Of a DNA stretch of 64,000 nucleotides, positions 53,051-64,000 are shown in pieces. How positions within the stretch are numbered: the stretch's first letter is position 1; each line of letters starts with the position of its first letter. Made by a program: the position numbers and the translations under genes. Source of the stretch: Macrostomum lignano (Eukaryota); NCBI GenBank assembly GCA_002269645.1, contig NIVC01001297.1, positions 62,001-126,000 of the forward strand, given 5' to 3'. The notes beneath the pieces were generated by a model. That model worked only from the letters and a program-made list of their open reading frames with translations. It was not told where the DNA came from and did no database searches.

Positions 53051-54136
53051 TTGATTGGAGGGTTTCACACTTTTATCTGCTTTTTAAAACCGTATCAATC
53101 TATTTACTGATAATTTTTCCACAAAAAAGCTTTTCATACTTTGAGTACGCAGAATATCCGCAAGAAAGGCGACTTATGTCACACAAGTTGCTACCCATAA
53201 TTGCGAAGTAAGTTGCAATTCTTTTTTTAGTACAGTAGAAGACATTTAAACCCGAAAGACTGACAGTTTCAAGTTTGGCTCCCAATTTCTTCTTAATTGT
53301 CTTCTTTCACCCTTCAGATTCTTCCATTTTGAAGCAAGAAGAAGTCACTCGCATGAATTTGCATCCTCAGCATAGCTTTTCAAGAATTTTAGCACCGAAT
53401 GAAGCTGAGCACCTGCGACTGGCAAGACAGATTCACACGCAATCCAACTGTCACTGTTGCCAGGGTGGCATATCCTTACTAGTGAATTAAAAGAAGCTAC
53501 AAAAACTCTTTCAATCCACGAAAAGGCTTCAAAGTTGCTGCGAGAATAAAAAACTGCTTTTAGAAGAACCCCGAAAAGTGTCCCGAGTGCCGGGGCAAGG
53601 CAATTGTTCCAAACCATGCTTGGAGCAGGTAAAATTAGTACTGAGGCATCCCCGAGGCCACGGAGCGGAATAAAACGCATTAGCAACAGTTGATAGATGG
53701 TAAAAAACAGCAGAGTGCAACCAGCTAGATTGATGCACCTCGGTAAGGTAAGCCTGACGCAAATAAAAAACCAATCAAGCGTTTTGAGCAAGAGAGCAAG
53801 AGATCTGCTCAGCATCAATATCATTCCATGCGAGTAGTAGAGGATAACACAACTCTGCCGCAGGGAAAGCCACGGAAATTCCGTGGGCCCGGATCAGAAG
53901 GGCGCCTATGTGTTTGCATGGCTCAACTCTGCCGCAGGCAAAGCCATGGGAATTCCGTAGACTCCTAATGAGAGTACATAGGCACCTGTGTTCCATAGGG
54001 GTAGGCCCCCTAATGTGAATACATAGACGCATGTGTTTACATAGGAGATATTTGTATATAAACCAGAAAATTTGTTTTCACAAATAATAAAATTTTTGAA
54101 ATTCTCGCTCCGTTACATCGTAATAACTAATTAATA

Positions 54137-54880
54137 ATGGTCGATATTGGAGAAGGCTACAAACTTCAAGTACAAGAGTATGAAGGAGTACAGTTTATTG
54201 CGATTCGGAAATTTTATCGACATGGCAGCACAGCAAGTTTAAAACCCGGCGTTCCCGGATTTAACCTCAACATCCGACAATGGGAGAAGTTGAAAGAACT
54301 GAAGCGAACTCTCGTGAAGGCGGCCCTAGGCGGGCAACAGAGGATCATCAAACTCGGTTTTGATAAGTTTGTTGAGGTTAAGAACGGCATCATCTGGCTA
54401 AGACGGCTTCCAGAAGATTGCTGCGAAGAATTTTTGAAGCGAAACACTGTGGCCTTGGCACCAGCTCTGTGGCGAAAACTGTGGGAGCAGGCTGCATGGA
54501 TCGACGAGCAGCTGTCTGCCCCACGCCAAATTTCTGATGTGTATGAGCTGGAGTCGGGATCTTCGAGCGAGAGAAACGGTGATGATGATGACAACAGCAA
54601 CAAGGACGACACCATGCGGCTTGCGAAGACTGAGGATGAGGGCGTCCAATCAAGCACTCTACGCATCGACGATGAAGTGGTCACATCAACGCCTCTACCG
54701 GTGACAAGTGCTGCAGCTGGCTTTATCCCAAAGCAGGATTCGGATTTGCTGCAGGACCCAGTCTGGTATCGCTTCCGGGCTGAAGCAGCTGCGGTCGAGA
54801 ACGTCAGGAAGCGCAAGCAACCATATCCGCTGCGCAGGCAGAATGCCATGAGACTGCGCCTCAATGAGGATGAGGAGTGA
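54137..54880 (+). CDS. Polinton protein with two tandem PC4/Sub1-like domains and an acidic/basic tail (247 aa)
   Basis: YKLQVQEYEGVQFIAIRKFY...KPGVPGFNLNIRQWEKLKE parallels PC4 YVSVRDFKGKVLIDIREYW...KPGRKGISLNPEQWSQLKE. A second, weaker copy reads FVEVKNGIIWLRRL...VALAPALWRKLWEQAAWIDEQL. Confidence 0.75.
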   Translation: MVDIGEGYKLQVQEYEGVQFIAIRKFYRHGSTASLKPGVPGFNLNIRQWEKLKELKRTLVKAALGGQQRIIKLGFDKFVEVKNGIIWLRRLPEDCCEEFLKRNTVALAPALWRKLWEQAAWIDEQLSAPRQISDVYELESGSSSERNGDDDDNSNKDDTMRLAKTEDEGVQSSTLRIDDEVVTSTPLPVTSAAAGFIPKQDSDLLQDPVWYRFRAEAAAVENVRKRKQPYPLRRQNAMRLRLNEDEE

Positions 54881-55326
54881 AGAAGAAGAATAAGAAGTGC
54901 TTTGAAGAACTTTGGTGACTGGTGACATACTTAAATTGGCTCATTTAACAATTTCTATAATTAACATTGCTCATTTATCCAGAAAACTTAATTAAGTCTC
55001 TCCATTTAAGAAAATCATGCAACTTATTGTTTCTTATCCGCTAAAAAATATAAAAGCTTCTTTTCATAAAAAAATTGTTTTCCTTTGTTCTTGTGCTTAA
55101 GAAAAAATTAGACTGTTGACTTTTGTTTCTTGAGAAAATGGAAAAAAATTATTTGCTCCTGGCCAACCAGCTAGTTTTTCAATTTGCCCAACAGCTGCTG
55201 CATCAAGTTAGAGAAGAGGGTGGGCATAAAAATTGAAAGAGCATTGAACAGTGGCTCAATGAGCAAACCGCGAAAAGAACTTAAAAAAAATTGTTTTGCA
55301 GGCTTTCATTCAGCTTGATTTTGATA

Positions 55327-56397
55327 ATGGAAAAGATCTACTACAACCCTGCTCAGCCTGCCAGTTTCTCGGGTGTCTCAAAGCTTCTGCACGAGCTCAA
55401 GAAAACACAGGATAATCGTGAATCTAAAAAGAGCATCGGACAATGGCTGACTGAGCAGCCTGTGTACACACTGCACAAGCAAGCTAGGAGACGCTATCCT
55501 ATGGCACCAATCATTGTTAGGGCTATTGATGATCAGTGGGAACTTGACCTGGTTGAGATGATACCATTTGCAAAATACAATAACGGCTACAAGTATATTC
55601 TCACATGTATAGATGTCCTCTCTAAATCTGGTTGGGCCAGGCCTCTAAAAAACAAATCAGCTGCGGAAGTCAAGTTCGCATTCGAGAGTATCCTGAGGTG
55701 CTCAAAGCGCCAGCCACGCACAGTCCGCACGGATCAAGGAAAAGAGTTCATCAATACCAATTTTCGGGAGCTCTGTATAAGCAAGGGAATTTTGGCATTC
55801 CCCACTAATAGTGAGCAAAAAGCAGCCATCATAGAGAGGTGGAATAGAACTTTGAAAAACAAAATGTGGCGATATTTCACCCACAAGAGCACTTTGCATT
55901 GGGTTGATGTGTTGCCAAAGCTGGTCAAGTCGTACAACAACACTTACCACAGAAGCATCAAAATGGCACCGACTAGCGTATGCAAAGAGAATGAGACTGA
56001 GGTCTGGATGAACCTTTACAATGGAAGAGCCATTGAGACTGTAAATAAGCCAAAGAAGCCCAAATTCAGTGAAAAGCAGTCAGTGAGAATTTCCAATGCA
56101 CCCAGGCTATTCCACAAAGGATACAAGGCCAACTGGAGTGAGGAGGTGTACACTGTAGTATGTAGGGCACCGAAGCACTATCCGTACATGTACAAGATTA
56201 GGGACATAAAGGGTGAGGAGATCCGGGGTCTCTTTCATGAGCATGAGCTGCAGGCGGTGCCGGACTCACAGCGACTGTATGTGATTGAGAAGATTCTGAA
56301 AACGGAGAAGAGGAAGGGAAAAATTCGCTATCTGGTGAAGTGGGCCGGCTACGACTCGACAGGCTGGGTGGATGAAAAAGACTTAAGAAAGGTTTAG
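55327..56397 (+). CDS. int: Retroviral-like (rve) integrase with C-terminal chromodomain
   Basis: First ATG at 55327. DDE triad WELDLVEM / RTDQGKEF / IIERWNRTLK, with D-x33-E. Chromodomain YVIEKIL...YLVKWAGYDS..WV.EKDL. Confidence 0.96.
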   Translation: MEKIYYNPAQPASFSGVSKLLHELKKTQDNRESKKSIGQWLTEQPVYTLHKQARRRYPMAPIIVRAIDDQWELDLVEMIPFAKYNNGYKYILTCIDVLSKSGWARPLKNKSAAEVKFAFESILRCSKRQPRTVRTDQGKEFINTNFRELCISKGILAFPTNSEQKAAIIERWNRTLKNKMWRYFTHKSTLHWVDVLPKLVKSYNNTYHRSIKMAPTSVCKENETEVWMNLYNGRAIETVNKPKKPKFSEKQSVRISNAPRLFHKGYKANWSEEVYTVVCRAPKHYPYMYKIRDIKGEEIRGLFHEHELQAVPDSQRLYVIEKILKTEKRKGKIRYLVKWAGYDSTGWVDEKDLRKV

Positions 56398-56416
56398 CTT
56401 TTGCGCATCTCTTCTC

Positions 56417-57244
56417 ATGAGGTTTAACATTATAATGCGAACTATTTTGATTAACAGTGAGCATGCTGAAGGTACTCCTAGTGACTTTAATTTTTACTTG
56501 CCTTCACCTATTTACTTGGATCGAAATGTGGACTATGAGGCAGGTCTGGCTGAAATCCATCTGCCTGCTGCATGGTTCAATGTTGACGAGCCTTACTGCT
56601 TCACTGTCTCAGATGGAAGAGAGCATGAGGCCCTGGTTCTTCAACCCGGACGCTTTGCTAGAGTGGAGGAGCTGGTGGAGCGTTTGAATCAGCTGCTGGC
56701 CAACTCTGATTCGCTATTCTTTGATGCAATGAGTGACAGGGAGTCTGAGATGGAGGCTGATGAGTCCGGCCTGATGGGGCGTAGTGGCAACAGGGAATTC
56801 GGTATGAAGTTCGAAATCCGCAACTCACGAACTGTGGTGCACAACAACACTGCGAGAGCAGAGATGTTTCTCCCATCCAGCAAAATTCTGCATTGGCTGG
56901 GATTTGGAAACCAGGCTGTGAAAATCCAGCCAGGGAGCCGCGTGTCCGAGCACTGCATTGGCTGCCCGCGCACCAGCTTAATCAATGTGCACTGCAGTAT
57001 CGTTGAGTCAACTAATTGCAACTTGGGCTCCCTGTTGAGAACAGTTGGAATGAAAGCCGGCATTGAATGGGGCAACTATCAAACAAAAATATTTAAGAAA
57101 ACAATATTCTTCCCGATTCAACGAATCAGTCTTCTTCACAGCATTCGAGTTCAGCTGCGTGACATCTATGGTTGCCCACTGATTGCCCAGACACTCAGCC
57201 CTGTTCTGCTCACAGTTCAGATTCGGGAGAAACGCATTCAATGA
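56417..57244 (+). CDS. Polinton minor capsid protein (penton, single jelly-roll)
   Basis: SDFNFYLPSPIYLD...YEAGLAEIHLPAAWFN and INVHCSIVE...SLLRTV...FPIQ...IRVQLRDIYG match Polinton penton motifs as I recall them. Confidence 0.82.
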   Translation: MRFNIIMRTILINSEHAEGTPSDFNFYLPSPIYLDRNVDYEAGLAEIHLPAAWFNVDEPYCFTVSDGREHEALVLQPGRFARVEELVERLNQLLANSDSLFFDAMSDRESEMEADESGLMGRSGNREFGMKFEIRNSRTVVHNNTARAEMFLPSSKILHWLGFGNQAVKIQPGSRVSEHCIGCPRTSLINVHCSIVESTNCNLGSLLRTVGMKAGIEWGNYQTKIFKKTIFFPIQRISLLHSIRVQLRDIYGCPLIAQTLSPVLLTVQIREKRIQ

Positions 57245-57630
57245 ACTACCAGCAGCTGATCCAGCAATATTCGGGGGTGAGGACAGGACACGAAAAGCCT
57301 GCACTCTATGGCTGTGGGAGCTTTCCGGGGATCATGACATACCAGCCTCCGCCAGCGGCTACATCATCATTCTCAACGCATAGCAATGTCAGGCGCAAAA
57401 GAAATACTGAAGCAAGTCCGAAACGATTGAAGAAGAAGAAGTACACCCGAAAGGCAACTGGTAGAGATCGCACCAATAAGAGGTGCAATGAAAGAAATCC
57501 GAGCAAGGCTAGTAGGAAAAAGCTTAAGAATAGGAAGACGAAAGCAAAGAAGAATGCAGCAGGCGGAGGAAAGCGAAAGCGAAAAGTCAGCAAGAAAACT
57601 GTGAAACGCGTGCTCGACTCTCTGTCATAG
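57241..57630 (+). CDS. Small Lys/Arg-rich putative virion core (DNA-condensing) protein
   Basis: ATG overlaps the penton stop (ATGA). Very basic C-terminal two-thirds. Lies between the penton and major capsid genes. Confidence 0.65.
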   Translation: MNYQQLIQQYSGVRTGHEKPALYGCGSFPGIMTYQPPPAATSSFSTHSNVRRKRNTEASPKRLKKKKYTRKATGRDRTNKRCNERNPSKASRKKLKNRKTKAKKNAAGGGKRKRKVSKKTVKRVLDSLS

Positions 57631-57632
57631 AC

Positions 57633-58916
57633 ATGGCTTACGGATTCAATCCCAGACTTGATTTATTTAAGACGCCTGTTCTACAAACCTGCATTGAAAA
57701 AGCTACTTATGTTGATATTCACCCAGTAAATTCCATTACTGCAAACTCCCCCATTGAATTTGACTGCCACCAATCTGCCGATGAATACACTGATTTGCTT
57801 AATTCTTTTCTTTATATTCGCTGCCGCCTTGTGAGACTGGATGGGGGTTTGCTGAGGGAGGATGTTCGAGATGGAGATGGCATCATCACCGAGCGCAGAG
57901 ACAGTGACGTGCACCCAGAAAACTTTGTTTTGTCTACAGCCTTCTCAGATGTAATTGTGAGCATTAACCAGCGAGTGGTATCTGGTGGAGACCAGCTCTA
58001 TCCCTACCATGCGTACTTCAAAGCACTAATGAGCTCATCTGATGCCCAGCAACTAAAACTTTACCCTGCTGGCTTCCTGGAGCCGAACTCGGCAGCTGAA
58101 AAGCACACGGAGAGCCACAGGGAATCCCGATGGATGGAGTATGCGGGACCGCTCTTCAGCGATGTTTTCCAATGCCCAGTGTTTCTGCTAAACAATCTGC
58201 ACTTGCACATCAAACTGGTGCCCAGCGATGGGGCCTTTGCCATCAGAAGCCCGAATGCAAACAACGCGGCATACCGCATGGAAATCTCTCACTGCATTTT
58301 GCATCTTCGCCGAGTCAAAGTGGTGCCCCACATCAGCCTGGCCCACGAGCAGGGGTTGACAAACCAAAATGCACTGTATCCCATCGAGCGAACTGAAATG
58401 CAGAACTTCATCCTACCCCAGGGCATTCAATCTAAAAACATTGAAGGATTCACTCATGGAAAATTGCCGAAGTTCATCATGCTGGCCTTCGTGAGCCACC
58501 GTGCATTCAACGGTCATCATCACGCGAGCCCGTTCCAGTTCCAGAGCTTCAACCTTAGCCAGTTGGCTCTAAAGAAAGGTGGGGAAACCGTGTGTCACGG
58601 TGCCTTCACACCTGAAAACAATTCCTTTGTAAGAGAATACTTACACTACCTGAAAAGCTGTCAATCTGCAAGCCACACGAACTCGGTTCCGTGGATCCCT
58701 TACCAGCTCTTCTCCAACAACAGCACGGTGTTTGCATTCGATCTCACACCAGAGGGAGCGGCTCTGTGGTACGGACAGAAGGAGGGCAACCTGCGGTTGG
58801 AGATTCGCTTCCGACAGGCTCTGGACGAAACGGTGTCCCTGATCGCTCTGTGCCTGTATGACTCGCTGATTGAGGTCACCAAGCACCGGGAGCTTTTGCT
58901 GGACTATTCCTCTTAA
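57633..58916 (+). CDS. Polinton major capsid protein (double jelly-roll)
   Basis: LDLFKTPVLQTCIEKATYVDIHPVNSI...PIEFD...DEYTDLLNSFLYIRCRL; LPKFIMLAFV...AFNG...PFQFQ; FAFDLTP; GNLRLEIRF. Confidence 0.93.
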   Translation: MAYGFNPRLDLFKTPVLQTCIEKATYVDIHPVNSITANSPIEFDCHQSADEYTDLLNSFLYIRCRLVRLDGGLLREDVRDGDGIITERRDSDVHPENFVLSTAFSDVIVSINQRVVSGGDQLYPYHAYFKALMSSSDAQQLKLYPAGFLEPNSAAEKHTESHRESRWMEYAGPLFSDVFQCPVFLLNNLHLHIKLVPSDGAFAIRSPNANNAAYRMEISHCILHLRRVKVVPHISLAHEQGLTNQNALYPIERTEMQNFILPQGIQSKNIEGFTHGKLPKFIMLAFVSHRAFNGHHHASPFQFQSFNLSQLALKKGGETVCHGAFTPENNSFVREYLHYLKSCQSASHTNSVPWIPYQLFSNNSTVFAFDLTPEGAALWYGQKEGNLRLEIRFRQALDETVSLIALCLYDSLIEVTKHRELLLDYSS

Positions 58917-58921
58917 CTGGC

Positions 58922-59431
58922 ATGGAAGCAATTCAACTACTCCATCTCGCCAGAAAATTTTTGTCTTGCCGAAAATTCTTCATCATTACTTTACATTCAC
59001 GCTATAAAAATGTATTGTCTTTGAGTCTAAAAAGAAAATATCGATCAATTCCCTTTGAAAACAAGTTTGTGTTTATCCTACTACAGCACAATGGCTCATT
59101 TGGTCATTGGGTGGTGTGCTATGCTGGGCAAGGAAATTGCATTGAGCTGTTCAACTCCCTCGGCTGGGAACCTGAAATTTTATCTGTGGTTTATAATTTG
59201 TTTCGAGAGATTAAAACAACTGGCTTTTATCTCCGAAGCAATATAAACAGATTTCAATGTGCTAACTCTAATAAATGCGGAGTGTTTTGCATCTATTTTG
59301 CTTATCAAAAGTTGCTGATCAATCGGTCATTTGAGGGTATTTTAAAGAGTTTGCACTCTAATGAAAAAAATCATTTGAATGATAGAATCTTACAGAGGTT
59401 TGAAGCCAACTTAAGAAAAAGATGTCCGTGA
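58922..59431 (+). CDS. Adenain-like (C5) cysteine maturation protease
   Basis: GHWVVCY...ELFNSLG and FQ...SNKCGVFCIYF (His, oxyanion Gln, catalytic Cys). Confidence 0.88.
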   Translation: MEAIQLLHLARKFLSCRKFFIITLHSRYKNVLSLSLKRKYRSIPFENKFVFILLQHNGSFGHWVVCYAGQGNCIELFNSLGWEPEILSVVYNLFREIKTTGFYLRSNINRFQCANSNKCGVFCIYFAYQKLLINRSFEGILKSLHSNEKNHLNDRILQRFEANLRKRCP

Positions 59432-59460
59432 TTTTCTAGAACTATATTTATGCATTAGAC

Positions 59461-60108
59461 ATGGGAGAAAAGCGAGTTTGCTACGATATCCGCCTCAGGC
59501 AGGGAAGCTGCATGATTGTCTGCGGGCCCACCAATGCAGGAAAAACAACCTTTGTCAAACACCTGATCCAGTACAGAGACGTCATGTTTGATGTGAAGCC
59601 TGGCAGAGTTCTGTGGTACTATGGGATCTCACAGGCAGGCCATGCAGAACTGAGCAGCCTAGGTGTGCAGCTGCGCCAGGGATTCCCCACCAACATCGAG
59701 GCAGCACTTAGGCCCAATGACCTGGTTGTTTTCGATGACTTAATAGAGGAAACTTCAAATTCTGCTTCAATGCGAAATTTTTTCACAGGAATCGCACATC
59801 ACTTGCCGTGCTTTTTGGTGATGCTGACTCAGAATATATTTTTCAAGGGAAAAGAGTCGCGAACAATGAGCTTGAATGTAATGTACTTAGCTATCTTGAA
59901 AAACCCCCGAGACCAGCTGCAGATTGCAGCACTGGGCAGGCAGTGCTTTACAGAGAAGCCCGGCTTTCTGCTGTCAGTGTTCAAGCACGTGACCGCGCAG
60001 AACAGGGGAGCCTACCTGTTCCTAGACTTTCACCCATCAACTCCCGATGAGCTGCGAGTGCGGGCCAGAATTTTGCCCAACCAGCGACCCCATCTTGTAT
60101 TTGCTTAA
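59461..60108 (+). CDS. A32/FtsK-HerA family packaging ATPase
   Basis: Walker A GPTNAGKT, Walker B LVVFDDL, then MLTQN and KNPRD motifs. Confidence 0.95.
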   Translation: MGEKRVCYDIRLRQGSCMIVCGPTNAGKTTFVKHLIQYRDVMFDVKPGRVLWYYGISQAGHAELSSLGVQLRQGFPTNIEAALRPNDLVVFDDLIEETSNSASMRNFFTGIAHHLPCFLVMLTQNIFFKGKESRTMSLNVMYLAILKNPRDQLQIAALGRQCFTEKPGFLLSVFKHVTAQNRGAYLFLDFHPSTPDELRVRARILPNQRPHLVFA

Positions 60109-60150
60109 GAAAGTGAAGCTTGTTTTTTATCGGCTATTGTTTTCATCGCT

Positions 60151-60489
60151 ATGGAAGTGCTTGATTCACATGCAAGTCTTTTTGCGGTTCTTGCGTCACC
60201 TAAATATACCGTGCGCTTCAAGCAGCTGTTGATAAAAAATTGTCCAAAAGAAGTGCGTTATTTTCTTGTTGAGGCCTGTCATAATCTCTTACAAAACAAT
60301 TTATCGTTTTCGATCGATGAAAAAGCTGTTCTTGCAAAGTCAAAAGAGATAATTCGAAAAATTACTCAGCAGAGAAGAAAGATAGACTTGTTAAAGGCTG
60401 GCTTCATCAAAATACTCCCGATTCTGCTTAAGCTGGTCAAGAAAAAGAAGCAAAATGAACAAATTTTCAGAAATGGTTCTGATTTCTAA
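60151..60489 (+). CDS. Conserved small Polinton protein with C-terminal amphipathic helix
   Basis: LVEACHNLLQNNL...KIDLLKAGFIKILPILL resembles a recurrent Polinton ORF (CECxxNxLxGNxxL...GGFLxxLL). Function unknown. Confidence 0.65.
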   Translation: MEVLDSHASLFAVLASPKYTVRFKQLLIKNCPKEVRYFLVEACHNLLQNNLSFSIDEKAVLAKSKEIIRKITQQRRKIDLLKAGFIKILPILLKLVKKKKQNEQIFRNGSDF

Positions 60490-61147
60490 AGCAGAGTATG
60501 AGATGTTAGTGCAGAATTTGAAGCCAAATGAGACTAGCACTGACGCTGACTTGAAGCAGGCTCAGAAGAAATGCGATGATATCTTGTATGCCGAGGATTA
60601 TCCAGAAGATGTGAAAACCGCCATGTATCAAAGTGCAATGCAAAGTTTGCTGGCCAAGCGCAAGCACGCTGGAAAAGAAGGATCACGAAATACTGAAGCC
60701 AAGTTGATGAAAATAGAGACACCCCAGATGAACACCTGGGAAGAGAAGATCAGCAAGTCGGTGCCACAGAAATTCAAAACCAGGGCTCGCAGTCTATGGA
60801 CGATCCTGTCCACCAATCCAGAGCTGATTGGAGTTTGTGAAAACGGAGAGGTGGAAATCGCAGGCACGTCAATCCCTTCCTCAAACATACTGGACTTGAT
60901 TCAGCACGCAGTGAGGGATTCGTCATGTGAGCGTGAACCAGTTGGGTGGAACGAGTTCATCGATTTGCTGCAGCAGAAAAAGCTTAATGTTCCGCTTTCC
61001 GCTATTGGTAAATCAGTTAAGAAGAAAATGGCAACCAGCAGAGGGGGTGAACTGGAGAAAGAACAGGAGAGTCTAGTCAAGGGGTACGGGAGCAACACAG
61101 CCTGGCTGAAACTGCCTGGCAGAAAAGTATATAAGAAGGTGGACTGA
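60455..61147 (+). CDS. Conserved Polinton hypothetical protein (230 aa)
   Basis: EMVLIS...DDIL...EDVKTAMYQSAMQ and KTRARSLW...GEVEIAGTSIPSSNILDLI resemble a recurrent Polinton ORF. Confidence 0.7.
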   Translation: MNKFSEMVLISKAEYEMLVQNLKPNETSTDADLKQAQKKCDDILYAEDYPEDVKTAMYQSAMQSLLAKRKHAGKEGSRNTEAKLMKIETPQMNTWEEKISKSVPQKFKTRARSLWTILSTNPELIGVCENGEVEIAGTSIPSSNILDLIQHAVRDSSCEREPVGWNEFIDLLQQKKLNVPLSAIGKSVKKKMATSRGGELEKEQESLVKGYGSNTAWLKLPGRKVYKKVD

Positions 61148-61175
61148 CTCCGAAATTTCGAGGGAAAGCTGCATC

Positions 61176-62027
61176 ATGAACTACATTGACTTCCAAGGAT
61201 TCCCGTGCAACAGCACAAGCAAAAACTTTGTTGTGAAGGAGTTGGCAGTTGTTCAAGTCAGAGCGGGAAGCTACCGAATTGCTCACCATGTGTACGCACC
61301 TCCGTATCCATGGGAGAGAGTCTCACCTGACATGCGAGTTTGCTACAGACAGCTATCAAAGAGTCTGCACCAGTTTAAGTGGAATGATGGAACCCGTCCG
61401 TACATGGAACTGGCGGAAGACATTCTGAGGATTGCCAGTGGTCCGATCTGGACAAATGGGGAAAGGAAGTCTATTTTCCTGACTGAGCTGCTTGGTAGAC
61501 AGGTTTATAACCTAGAAGATTTGGGAGCACCCTCGACTGAAGATTCAGATACTGGCTGTGCAGTGAGAAATTCGTTGCTGCACTACAGTTGGCTTAAGCC
61601 AAAGTTCTGCATCAACTTAAGAAGCGAGCAGTGTCCGTGGCACACGAGCAGTAAAGTTGGCAGAAGCAGATTTGGTGAAGAAGTTGACGATCGAAATGAG
61701 CCCACCAGCTACAGCCCTAAGAGTGAGCAATCTGGTTGGCGGAGTAGATCTGAGGCTGGATGGTGGCAGGGGCGCTCAGCTACCTCTACGGGAACTGGCT
61801 CTCAGCATGGCTCATGTGATCTACCGGCCCGTCTGGCCCCGGGTGCTCATCAAGCGGATGCGAAGTCCCAGAGTGACTCTGCTACTCTACCCTACTGGGC
61901 AACTGAGCATCTGCGGTGCCAAGACCCACGCAGACGCCAAAAGGGCTGCCCGTCGCTTCGTGGCTATGCTGCATCGGAGAGTGCCAGCTCAACTGCTGCC
62001 TCCTCAAGCCATTTGTGTTCGGATTAA
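61176..62027 (+). CDS. DnaQ/DEDD-fold exonuclease-like Polinton protein; conserved part ends ~61600
   Basis: YIDFQGF...FVVKELAVV...APPYPW...HQFKWNDG..PY...VYNLEDLGAP...CAVRN. The distal ~120 codons overlap the TBP-like ORF. Confidence 0.65.
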   Translation: MNYIDFQGFPCNSTSKNFVVKELAVVQVRAGSYRIAHHVYAPPYPWERVSPDMRVCYRQLSKSLHQFKWNDGTRPYMELAEDILRIASGPIWTNGERKSIFLTELLGRQVYNLEDLGAPSTEDSDTGCAVRNSLLHYSWLKPKFCINLRSEQCPWHTSSKVGRSRFGEEVDDRNEPTSYSPKSEQSGWRSRSEAGWWQGRSATSTGTGSQHGSCDLPARLAPGAHQADAKSQSDSATLPYWATEHLRCQDPRRRQKGCPSLRGYAASESASSTAASSSHLCSD

Positions 62028-62286
62028 AACTATTACTGCTCATGGTAAATTTAACTTCTGCAATGCTTTGTCCCTCACAAATCTTGCTGCCTCTGGCATA
62101 CTGTCTTACGCTGAGTATGAGCCCGAGTCGTTCTCTGCTCTAATTTATACATTACGTTATTGTAAATGCTTGTTATTTCATACTGGTTCTTTTGTTCTTA
62201 GTGGAGCAAAATCTATGAGCATGTTGCGCTTCGACCTTTCTACGTTACATAGTTTAATCAGCCAGTTTATCACCTATCAAAAATAA
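61696..62286 (+). CDS. TATA-binding-protein (TBP)-like protein encoded inside the Polinton (196 aa from first ATG)
   Basis: Two TBP repeats: VSNLVGGVDL...LRELALSMAHVIYRPVWPRVLIKRMRSPRVTLLLYPTGQLSICGAKTHADAKRAARRF and IKTITAHGKF...AEYEPESFSALIYTL..CKCLLFHTGSFVLSGAKS. These parallel TBP LQNIVSTVNL...YNPKRF...IFSSGKMVCTGAKS...AARKY and YEPELFPGLIY...IFVSGKVVLTGAK. AATAAA overlaps the stop. Confidence 0.9.
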   Translation: MSPPATALRVSNLVGGVDLRLDGGRGAQLPLRELALSMAHVIYRPVWPRVLIKRMRSPRVTLLLYPTGQLSICGAKTHADAKRAARRFVAMLHRRVPAQLLPPQAICVRIKTITAHGKFNFCNALSLTNLAASGILSYAEYEPESFSALIYTLRYCKCLLFHTGSFVLSGAKSMSMLRFDLSTLHSLISQFITYQK

Positions 62287-63016: not shown

Positions 63017-64000
63017 TCACTTATTAAATTCGTAGTCTTCTTCCCGTCGCCGCTTTCGGGAGGCTGTAGCATTCACGTGCTGTTGCAGCTGCGACGACTC
63101 CGGATGAAGAAGTTGAAAATGGCCAAACGGGAGACTGTAGTTCGGTGCAAGCCAAGCGCGCTTGTCCTCCCAAATGCTTAAGGCACACTTTCGCTGCTGC
63201 AGCGTGAATAGCCTGTGTTGGATGCTAGCGATCCTGTGGATGATGACGGACATGCTACTCAGATCATTGAAGACTCTCAAGTAATCACTATGCGCAATCT
63301 CCTTCTTGACAACACATCCTTGAATGCCTTTGGCTTTTTTCTTTTCAGCAGTTGCAGTGCTAGCGAGAAAGGAATACAGCTTTGGTCTCAAAAGCAACCA
63401 TTCGAGATAGCGAGCTCCAGCTCCTTCGTCCTTGATGCAACCGAGGCGAGCTTTCAATTCATTTGAGAACAGCGGGTGCTCAGGTGAATAGTTGGAAGTG
63501 TCAAGGAGTTTCTTTGCTTTTAGCAGTGGAAGAACTTCCGACTGCACATCCATATTCTGAATGCAAAGAAAGAGCGAGTCGGTGTCTCCACCACAGAGCC
63601 GAACACGGGCACCCTCTTGCTCAAGCCAAGGCTTCAATTTGTCGTAGAATAACTCGTACATGATTAGCTTCGAATAGTCAAGAACACACTGGCCAATAAA
63701 AATCGGACGATCAAGCTTGACCTTAGTCTTCTGGAATTCAATTATGCTCAGTGAGTCGGTAATTATGATAAAGTTCTTAATGGATGGTTTTGAAGCCAGC
63801 ACCTTTGCTTTTGCAGTGTTGGTGCAAATCCGAATGTCACGTCGCTTACGCACGTTTTCCATTGTTTTTCCGAAGAGCGCATTGTTTTTTAGTTTGTAGT
63901 AGTCTTTCTCGAAGCTGTTTGTCGCAGCAGCTCTTTTCACGCTGTTCATGTTAACATAGTCAGCAAATATCGGCTCCTGTTTGTACTCAATCATTCGATT
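63017..64000 (-). CDS. polB: Protein-primed family B DNA polymerase, C-terminal part (5' end outside window)
   Basis: KLKNNALFGKTMENVRKR (motif B), GDTDSLF (motif C), LGCIKDE, LRPKLYS, KAKGI. Confidence 0.95.
   Translation of the reverse strand, partial: NRMIEYKQEPIFADYVNMNSVKRAAATNSFEKDYYKLKNNALFGKTMENVRKRRDIRICTNTAKAKVLASKPSIKNFIIITDSLSIIEFQKTKVKLDRPIFIGQCVLDYSKLIMYELFYDKLKPWLEQEGARVRLCGGDTDSLFLCIQNMDVQSEVLPLLKAKKLLDTSNYSPEHPLFSNELKARLGCIKDEGAGARYLEWLLLRPKLYSFLASTATAEKKKAKGIQGCVVKKEIAHSDYLRVFNDLSSMSVIIHRIASIQHRLFTLQQRKCALSIWEDKRAWLAPNYSLPFGHFQLLHPESSQLQQHVNATASRKRRREEDYEFNK

Follow-up and report, generated by a model that had tools for sequence, protein, structure and literature searches.

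The 64,000-nucleotide (nt) stretch of Macrostomum lignano DNA analysed here (contig NIVC01001297.1, positions 62,001 to 126,000; the window) contains an intact Polinton/Maverick of ~15.96 kb, which runs from window position 53833 to ~5.8 kb beyond the window end. The element encodes a divergent TATA-binding protein (TBP) and a protein with a PC4 fold, and carries a strand-specific, non-canonical motif, (Y)WTAAGAA, 34-159 nt before most genes of its capsid block. This motif is found in both families of the element distinguished below. With fair probability, the sequences point to TAAGAA as a private late-promoter code; the element TBP would read it and bring the TFIIB and RNA polymerase II (Pol II) of the host to the integrase gene and the virion block. 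A preliminary description of the same DNA had proposed that the element supplies its own promoter-recognition factor, acting with PC4 at TATA-like boxes.

Copies of the element are numerous in the host genome. A genome search gave 227 candidates for TBP and 280 for PC4; 150 of each were scored, and essentially all of these matched. Twenty-two elements, picked by their TBP, were examined. Thirteen belong to the family of the window element (family I), and nine to a second family (family II), with TBPs 31-35%, PC4 proteins 30-36% and integrases about 55% identical to those of family I. In family II, polB is located at the left end, and PC4 at the right end, on the opposite strand and downstream of TBP. 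The earlier statement that the TBP and PC4 genes bracket the virion block therefore applies to family I and fails for family II.

Among the 7-mers of six family-I capsid blocks, which are related copies, TTAAGAA ranks first (48 occurrences against 3.8 expected), and ATAAGAA occurs 18 times, against 1.3 expected, in four family-II blocks that are near-identical. Within the 10.2 kb of the element that lie in the window, WTAAGAA is found 12 times on the plus strand and twice on the minus strand, compared with 2 and 8 times in the 53.8 kb of host DNA. Over the whole 64-kb window, CTTAAGAA is not enriched (6 against 3.98 expected); the signal is the confinement to one strand of the element. In four family-I copies, 8/11, 9/10, 7/8 and 7/7 motif sites lie 30-160 nt before an ATG, and such intervals make up 18% of the block (p 1e-4 to 1e-6). 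Before the integrase gene (INT), the motif tracks the ATG, and not the upstream stop codon: in 6/6 copies it is 38-57 nt from the ATG and 129-434 nt from the PC4 stop. The motif is found in different reading frames, once as TTA-AGA (TTA represents 8% of the leucine codons), and is conserved between families with proteins about 40-55% identical. Both families have it before INT, the putative minor capsid, basic-protein and putative major capsid protein (MCP) genes, the 110/112-amino-acid (aa) open reading frame (ORF) and the exonuclease-like ORF; the motif before the family-II ATPase is the variant CATAAGAG. AATAAA follows the TBP stop codon in 5/5 copies. Together with internal motifs that track the INT ATG, this would fit nested, 3'-coterminal transcripts from internal promoters. 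The spacer before INT in the window copy (55096-55326), also matched at 40% in contig C211, resembles a decayed duplicate of the motif and the INT start, which would explain the 230-nt spacing in the subfamily of this copy.

The presence of TBP-like and PC4-like homologues, as noted earlier, is borne out by Pfam matches (PF00352, two repeats, E 4.8e-26, and PF02229, E 4.8e-7) and by structure models. The AlphaFold2 (AF2) model of the TBP has a pLDDT of 90.1 and the full two-repeat saddle, and Foldseek places cellular TBPs (query TM-score, TMq, ~0.8) ahead of every viral TBP model. The protein is about 30% identical to solved TBPs and, in the alignment, 27% identical to the host TBP. Its closest named homologue is a Macrostomum lignano protein (83%), and beyond a Macrostomum-like clade and one JGI protein the sequence searches reached only ordinary TBPs. 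The TBP is kept under purifying selection, with dN/dS of 0.13-0.35 in 6/6 pairs.

Eight element TBPs were mapped on the host TBP (L044), with yeast numbering assigned by offset and with the residue roles (TFIIB stirrup, DNA contacts, helix-2 partners) that we take to hold for cellular TBPs. Residues E142, E144, F146 and F161 (yeast E186, E188, F190 and F207) are invariant in 8/8 proteins. All eight thus have the acidic stirrup (E186/E188) for TFIIB binding, and the N69 and V71 equivalents are also kept. On the DNA face, N95R, F99P, A100R, F116Y, V122S/T, T124C, N159T, V161T/S, P191S/N and V203K are common to 8/8 element TBPs and absent from the host TBP, although they span two families whose TBPs are only about 32% identical. 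The canonical set of DNA contacts (four intercalating phenylalanines, N69/N159 and T124/T215) is incomplete, since F190, F207 and N69 are kept, and the remainder is altered (F99P, F116Y, T124C, N159T, T215S/C/A). The basic residues of helix 2, which form the face for TFIIA, NC2 and Mot1, are kept in family I and not in family II. With its fixed TFIIB stirrup, the same rebuilt DNA face in both families and a free regulatory face, the protein therefore appears to resemble a promoter reader of changed specificity, and not a general decoy. In a quick tree of 50 rows, to which the further hits contributed at most 32, the TBPs of the two families share one branch (SH-aLRT 99), a long one apart from the host TBP and from a TRF2-like paralogue that the host encodes; long-branch attraction may affect the grouping. 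The core of host TFIIB is interrupted by an intron.

The idea of an own promoter-recognition factor is thus strengthened by the purifying selection, the invariant TFIIB glutamates, the reshaped DNA face and the private motif, but the likely promoter is not the TATA boxes with which it had been associated. The three 8-mers are placed exactly at 54055, 55049 and 61128; of these, only the box at 54055 is canonical and well conserved, and the main signal, TAAGAA, had been missed. TATAWA occurs within 330 nt before INT in 8/13 family-I copies, at scattered places. At 61128, 6 of the 13 family-I copies have TATATA, and the remaining 7 have TATTTAAGAAG or CATAAGAAG; only the TAAGAA core is common to 13/13. 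TATAWAWR is found 4 times on the plus strand of 54001-62286, against 0.76 expected (2/200 shuffles reach 4), but over the whole element the enrichment is not significant (4 against 2.06, P 0.135). Canonical boxes are also found elsewhere: TATATAA precedes the 345-aa ORF in 4/5 copies shown, family-II PC4 in 4/4 shown and family-II polB in 2/2, and CTATAAAAG is located upstream of family-II TBP.

If TAAGAA is the private late promoter, host TBP would transcribe the end-proximal genes, namely PC4, the 345-aa zinc-finger ORF and, in family II, polB. The element TBP would be primed by the canonical TATA box before the exonuclease/TBP pair (6/13 family-I copies; family-II TBP) or by leaky transcription. 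Once bound to TAAGAA, it would attract TFIIB and Pol II of the host to the genes for integrase, capsid and packaging. Transcripts would start about 30 nt past each TAAGAA, would be nested and would share the AATAAA after the TBP gene as their end. The part of PC4 would be to cover the strands displaced in protein-primed replication. A broader reading is more tentative, with a little less than an even chance of being correct: some animal Polintons may repeatedly have captured TBP and re-tuned it to a one-protein specificity switch, taking the structural-gene promoters of each TBP-bearing lineage away from the host TATA consensus and placing them on a private code (TAAGAA here, ATAAAC in elements with the mini-TBPs described next).

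A search with the MCP alignment yielded 81 distant loci at 27-34% identity, one from IMG/VR and the best 80 of 374 metagenome loci, most of them short. IMG/VR searches with the MCP alone and with the TBP alignment found no relatives. A full TBP is present in 3/81 loci (L070, L079, L089), in each case after MCP, protease and exonuclease-like ORF, the order of the window element, and a fragment is found in one more. The distant TBPs are mini-TBPs of ~150-165 aa that lack most of helix 2. In these TBP loci, YATAAAC occurs 4 times against 0.6 expected (L079), 4 against 0.8 (L089) and, weakly, 4 against 1.6 (L070). Among 22 loci in which no TBP was seen, canonical TATAWAWR is in excess on the coding strand of 8, to a degree that varies from clear to moderate (L098, 7 against 0.8; L115, 7 against 1.1; L132, 6 against 0.9; L144, 6 against 1.4; and L141, L127, L143 and L121); two more, L087 and L114, have private motifs, and the others give no information. 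Since the motif classes were defined after looking, the relation between TBP and motif across distant loci is a trend and not a test.

Several observations weigh against a private code read by the element TBP. The motif and the 30-160 nt interval were picked after inspection of the data, and the copies are not independent. The motif is absent before the protease and the 200/230-aa ORF in both families, and before MCP in two family-I subfamilies, and its spacing is loose (34-159 nt, with one family-II site 11 nt from the ATG). Family-I TBP itself lies behind the motif, and 7/13 copies lack the overlapping canonical TATA box, which leaves the priming unexplained there. Recombination and the ORF that overlaps it confound the low divergence of the N-terminal half of TBP. 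Loss of F99 could also mean weak DNA binding, as in TRF2. Among the distant loci, L089 has an excess of canonical boxes as well (6 against 2.4), the complete, TBP-less L064 has no excess of any motif on an AT-rich background, and L082, L117 and L123 have little of any motif. Private motifs are found in L087:4500-10628 (YTTAAGC, 7 against 1.1) and L114:1000-6371 (YATAAAC, 7 against 0.9) with no TBP seen in contigs that end before the TBP slot; the full-length elements are predicted to carry one. The cross-element correlation between TBP and motif is small.

It may be asked whether TBP and PC4 act together. Residues 1-130 of the PC4 ORF are modelled as two beta-beta-beta-beta-alpha repeats with the PC4 fold for binding of single-stranded DNA (ssDNA). 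The model matches the C-terminal domain of PC4 (target TM-score, TMt, 0.81-0.86) and, over its full length, repeats I-II of PURA, all with E > 0.001. The protein is under purifying selection, in many copies and in the second, distant family; dS is saturated in 5/6 pairs, and dN/dS is 0.14 in the sixth. The first beta-strand of the fold stands at the very start of the ORF, and the regulatory region that precedes the fold in PC4/Sub1, serine/acidic and lysine-rich and needed there for coactivation, is missing. There are 96 near-full TBP hits in the genome, of which 15 are too near the contig start; at least 63 of the 81 eligible ones have a same-strand PC4 gene 4-17 kb upstream, and both genes are present in 22/22 elements examined. 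This co-occurrence, in both families, and the conserved canonical TATA box before PC4, which would make the protein present early, speak for a joint preinitiation module at the element promoters, as does the phage ssDNA-binding protein Drc, which is described as an RNA polymerase cofactor in the passages available (PMC7145618). The module is nevertheless unlikely. In the 81 distant loci, tandem PC4 is found in 16, and TBP in the three loci and one fragment above, but never both, although the TBP contigs end too early to exclude PC4. L064, which is complete and bounded by terminal inverted repeats (TIRs), has PC4 and no TBP. PC4 is most likely a replication ssDNA-binding protein, because it occurs widely where TBP does not, is devoid of the N-terminus of the coactivator and has a phage T5 homologue that serves replication, according to the accessible part of the report (PMC7549692). 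It is probably a separate tandem ssDNA-binding protein outside any joint module with TBP; it may still have a role in transcription. Tandem PC4 proteins of distant Polintons (L098, L115, L143, L144 and others) have a C-x-H...CxxC tail that is absent from families I and II, and L098 has two PC4 genes.

Other explanations leave TAAGAA to a different reader. The element TBP could serve as a decoy and titrate host factors such as TFIIB, with TAAGAA read by host TBP, TRF2 or another factor. The invariant TFIIB stirrup in the face of the F99 loss and the existence of a host TRF2-like paralogue agree with this, yet a decoy would have no need of ten DNA-face substitutions that are fixed in TBPs with only about 32% identity, conservation of the basic face of helix 2 is lacking, and the motif is not enriched in the host DNA of the window; the explanation is improbable. 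Sequestration of TFIIA or NC2, suggested in the preliminary description, is disfavoured because family II has not kept the basic face of helix 2, most of which is deleted in the mini-TBPs. The motif could also act at the RNA level, where it would resolve one long polycistronic transcript as an acceptor for trans-splicing or as a signal for cleavage or translation, while TBP does something else. Flatworms trans-splice, the genes are tightly packed on one strand with a single AATAAA at the end, and several motifs overlap the upstream stop codon. We consider this quite doubtful, since the motif follows the downstream ATG and not the stop, makes a poor splice acceptor, and gives way to canonical TATA boxes before the same genes in TBP-less relatives. 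Finally, the motif could be a late promoter that belongs to a large DNA virus acting as helper, as with virophages. The motif core resembles the baculovirus TAAG late element, and the literature available in part describes virophages as well as polinton-like viruses (PLVs) that share promoter motifs with their helpers. A helper is highly improbable, as the element has its own TBP, the motif differs among TBP-bearing lineages (TAAGAA or ATAAAC), and no helper virus was seen.

The element has the hallmarks of a Polinton. Its TIRs of 156 bp (97%) begin with AGTAGT, in keeping with the AG/AGT start of Polinton TIRs, and a 6-bp target-site duplication (TSD) is present. The integrase has the expected rve domain (PF00665, E 2e-12) and chromodomain (PF00385, E 1.7e-5). 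On both sides, the element is flanked by host exons, which we presume to be GALT-like. The gene order on the plus strand is PC4, integrase-chromodomain, putative minor capsid, basic protein, putative major capsid, protease, ATPase, 112-aa ORF, 230-aa ORF, exonuclease-like ORF and TBP; the minus strand encodes the 1277-aa polB and the 345-aa Cys/His-rich ORF. Among the ORFs and Pfam matches between the TIRs, none is RNA polymerase-like, in agreement with the preliminary description. Coordinates are collected in Table 1.

Table 1. Features of the Polinton within the window (distances of motifs are to the ATG of the gene named)
Feature	Position	Strand	Remarks
6-bp TSD, CATGCG	53827..53832	.	Identical hexamer right of the element
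Left TIR, begins AGTAGT	53833..53987	+	Partner L016:7638-7793, beyond the window
Canonical TATA box before PC4	54055..54062	+	TATAWA in 12/13 family-I copies; likely early, host-TBP promoter
Tandem PC4-fold protein (aa 1-130), acidic then basic tail	54137..54880	+	Pfam and model; likely ssDNA-binding
TATAAAAG, box of the preliminary description	55049..55056	+	Present, position not conserved
CTTAAGAA, motif before INT	55096..55103	+	230 nt here; 38-57 nt in six other copies
rve integrase (INT), C-terminal chromodomain	55327..56397	+	Pfam
CTTAAGAA, motif before putative minor capsid gene	56382..56389	+	34 nt; within INT codons; also kept in family II
Putative minor capsid protein	56417..57244	+	Position and homologues in Polinton loci
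TTTAAGAA, motif before basic-protein gene	57092..57099	+	148 nt
K/R-rich small protein, putative core protein (basic-protein gene)	57241..57630	+	Sequence
CTTAAGAA, motif before MCP	57523..57530	+	109 nt (106 nt in family II); missing from two family-I subfamilies
Putative major capsid protein (MCP)	57633..58916	+	No Pfam match; homologues in Polinton-type loci
Adenain-like protease	58922..59431	+	PF00770 E 0.003, below cut-off
CTTAAGAA, motif before ATPase	59410..59417	+	50 nt
A32-like packaging ATPase	59461..60108	+	Weak Pox_A32 match, Walker A
CTTAAGAA, motif before 112-aa ORF	60104..60111	+	46 nt
Conserved Polinton ORF, 112 aa	60151..60489	+	Homologues
Conserved Polinton ORF, 230 aa	60455..61147	+	Homologues
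TATATAAGAA, canonical TATA overlapping TAAGAA	61128..61137	+	45 nt before exonuclease-like ORF
DEDD-exonuclease-like ORF	61176..62027	+	No Pfam match; frame runs 110 codons into TBP
CTTAAGAA, motif before TBP	61616..61623	+	79 nt
Divergent TBP core, 196 aa	61696..62286	+	Pfam and model; AATAAA overlapping stop
3' part of the 1277-aa family-B DNA polymerase gene (polB)	63017..64000	-	Motifs read directly; remainder in L016

Some of the gene names are provisional. The PolB motifs were read directly in the 1277-aa ORF, which is homologous to ORFs of Polinton loci and has no Pfam polymerase match; the ATPase and protease matches are below the Pfam cut-offs, and the putative capsid genes are named by position and homologues. 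The polB gene (L016:1017-4850) has an endonuclease-VII-like zinc motif at aa 478-516 (PF02945, E 3e-6). The 345-aa ORF (L016:6064-7101), with an N-terminal Cys/His cluster, acidic repeats, a canonical TATA box upstream and no Pfam match, is a candidate early regulator. The label of the exonuclease-like ORF rests on a motif that we assume to be of the DEDD type. This ORF lies upstream of TBP in both families and in 2/3 distant TBP loci by direct search, and in the third by iterated search. Its first acidic motif (61176-61200) is D-x-E in the mini-TBP loci and in family II but D-x-Q in family I, whose protein may therefore be catalytically altered. The frame stays open into TBP, for 110 codons in family I (61696-62027) and for 129 in family II (L019:695-1083), in the same relative frame; when three copies were recoded synonymously, the chance of this was 0.03, 0.035 and 0.008, and the reading into TBP may be an overprinted extension. 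Family-I copies are strongly mosaic: the region from the capsid genes to the N-terminal half of TBP is nearly identical between subfamilies in which PC4, integrase, the C-terminal half of TBP and polB are saturated, and there is an apparent breakpoint inside TBP. The 5' part of the family-II integrase gene is apparently broken by a GT..AG intron of ~100 nt (G000 C291, L050-L051; C2485). Short, internally deleted family-II copies (G000 C110 and C592, L020-L023) keep TIRs, integrase and PC4, and one copy adjoins a reverse-transcriptase ORF.

If the element TBP reads TAAGAA, a cognate TBP and promoter code would constitute a concrete late switch, with bearing on the timing of Polinton gene expression and virion formation; the host has more than 100 copies that bear a TBP, and the frames of many are intact. 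Compared with the herpesvirus complex of six proteins, the element TBP would be a simpler and natural case of altered specificity, from which the residues that set TATA specificity could be read. Should the repeated capture of TBP hold as well, a 16-kb element would run a herpesvirus-like early/late programme with an orthogonal TBP-promoter pair that uses host TFIIB and Pol II. Tandem proteins of the PC4 fold, which are common in Polintons, are candidates for the ssDNA-binding protein of Polinton replication.

The element resembles several known systems in part. With the Polintons, Mavericks and adintoviruses it shares the TIRs that start with AGT, the 6-bp TSD, the rve integrase-chromodomain and the putative polB, ATPase, adenain-like protease and capsid genes, as far as they are described in the accessible text of Starrett et al. 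2021 (PMC8502044). A TBP gene in viruses of this kind is on record, since a figure legend on MELD viruses with adintovirus-like PolB lists it; the available passages of the same paper give no function, promoter motif or PC4 for the viral TBP. In the partly accessible Polinton literature that was searched, neither an element-specific promoter motif nor a reshaped TBP DNA face was found, and there were no passages on TATA or Polinton promoters; Repbase annotations and subscription papers may mention such genes. Polintons were not found paired with a PC4 protein in the literature searched, where the sole co-mention of 'polinton' and 'PC4' is a cluster label. The accessible part of a coral Polinton paper describes VLTF3 and co-regulated capsid genes.

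Compared with cellular TBP, TRF2 and TBPL1, the element TBP has the same two-repeat saddle and keeps the equivalents of N69, V71, E186, E188, F190 and F207, but it differs by F99P, F116Y, T124C, N159T and V203K, a 7-residue insertion and a separate long branch. The TBP-like proteins of nucleocytoplasmic large DNA viruses (NCLDV) and mirusviruses are also viral TBP folds (BFVD, best E 1e-10), but at 8-22% identity they are more remote, and the model is nearer to cellular TBPs. NCLDV and mirusviruses mostly bring their own polymerase or TFIIB. The element PC4 shares the fold of PC4/Sub1, its phage T5 homologue and PURA, and the residues that we take to be equivalent to R86 and G102 of PC4; it differs from PC4/Sub1 in having two repeats in one chain (an intramolecular dimer), no N-terminal regulatory region and an acidic tail.

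The closest working analogue is the late transcription system of beta- and gamma-herpesviruses, in which a TBP mimic (ORF24/BcRF1/UL87) acts on TATTWAA (PMC12529657). ORF24, according to the passages available from this source, is a large protein that works in a six-subunit complex and binds Pol II directly, in a model incompatible with TFIIB binding. The element TBP, in contrast, consists of no more than a TBP core of 196 aa, in which the TFIIB stirrup is retained, and has no large Pol II-binding N-terminal domain. No partners of the viral preinitiation complex (vPIC) were recognised among the ORFs of the element, although no search was aimed at them. The likeness lies in the general design, as far as these passages describe it: there is no viral RNA polymerase, early genes have host-like TATA boxes, structural genes have a divergent TATA-like element, and the viral TBP-fold protein has a more polar DNA face. 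Some sites of the element, which read TATTTAAG, are also similar to TATTWAA. The parts of a herpesvirus-type pairing, a viral TBP and a non-canonical TATA-like element before structural genes, are thus present in this Polinton, where the one may read the other.

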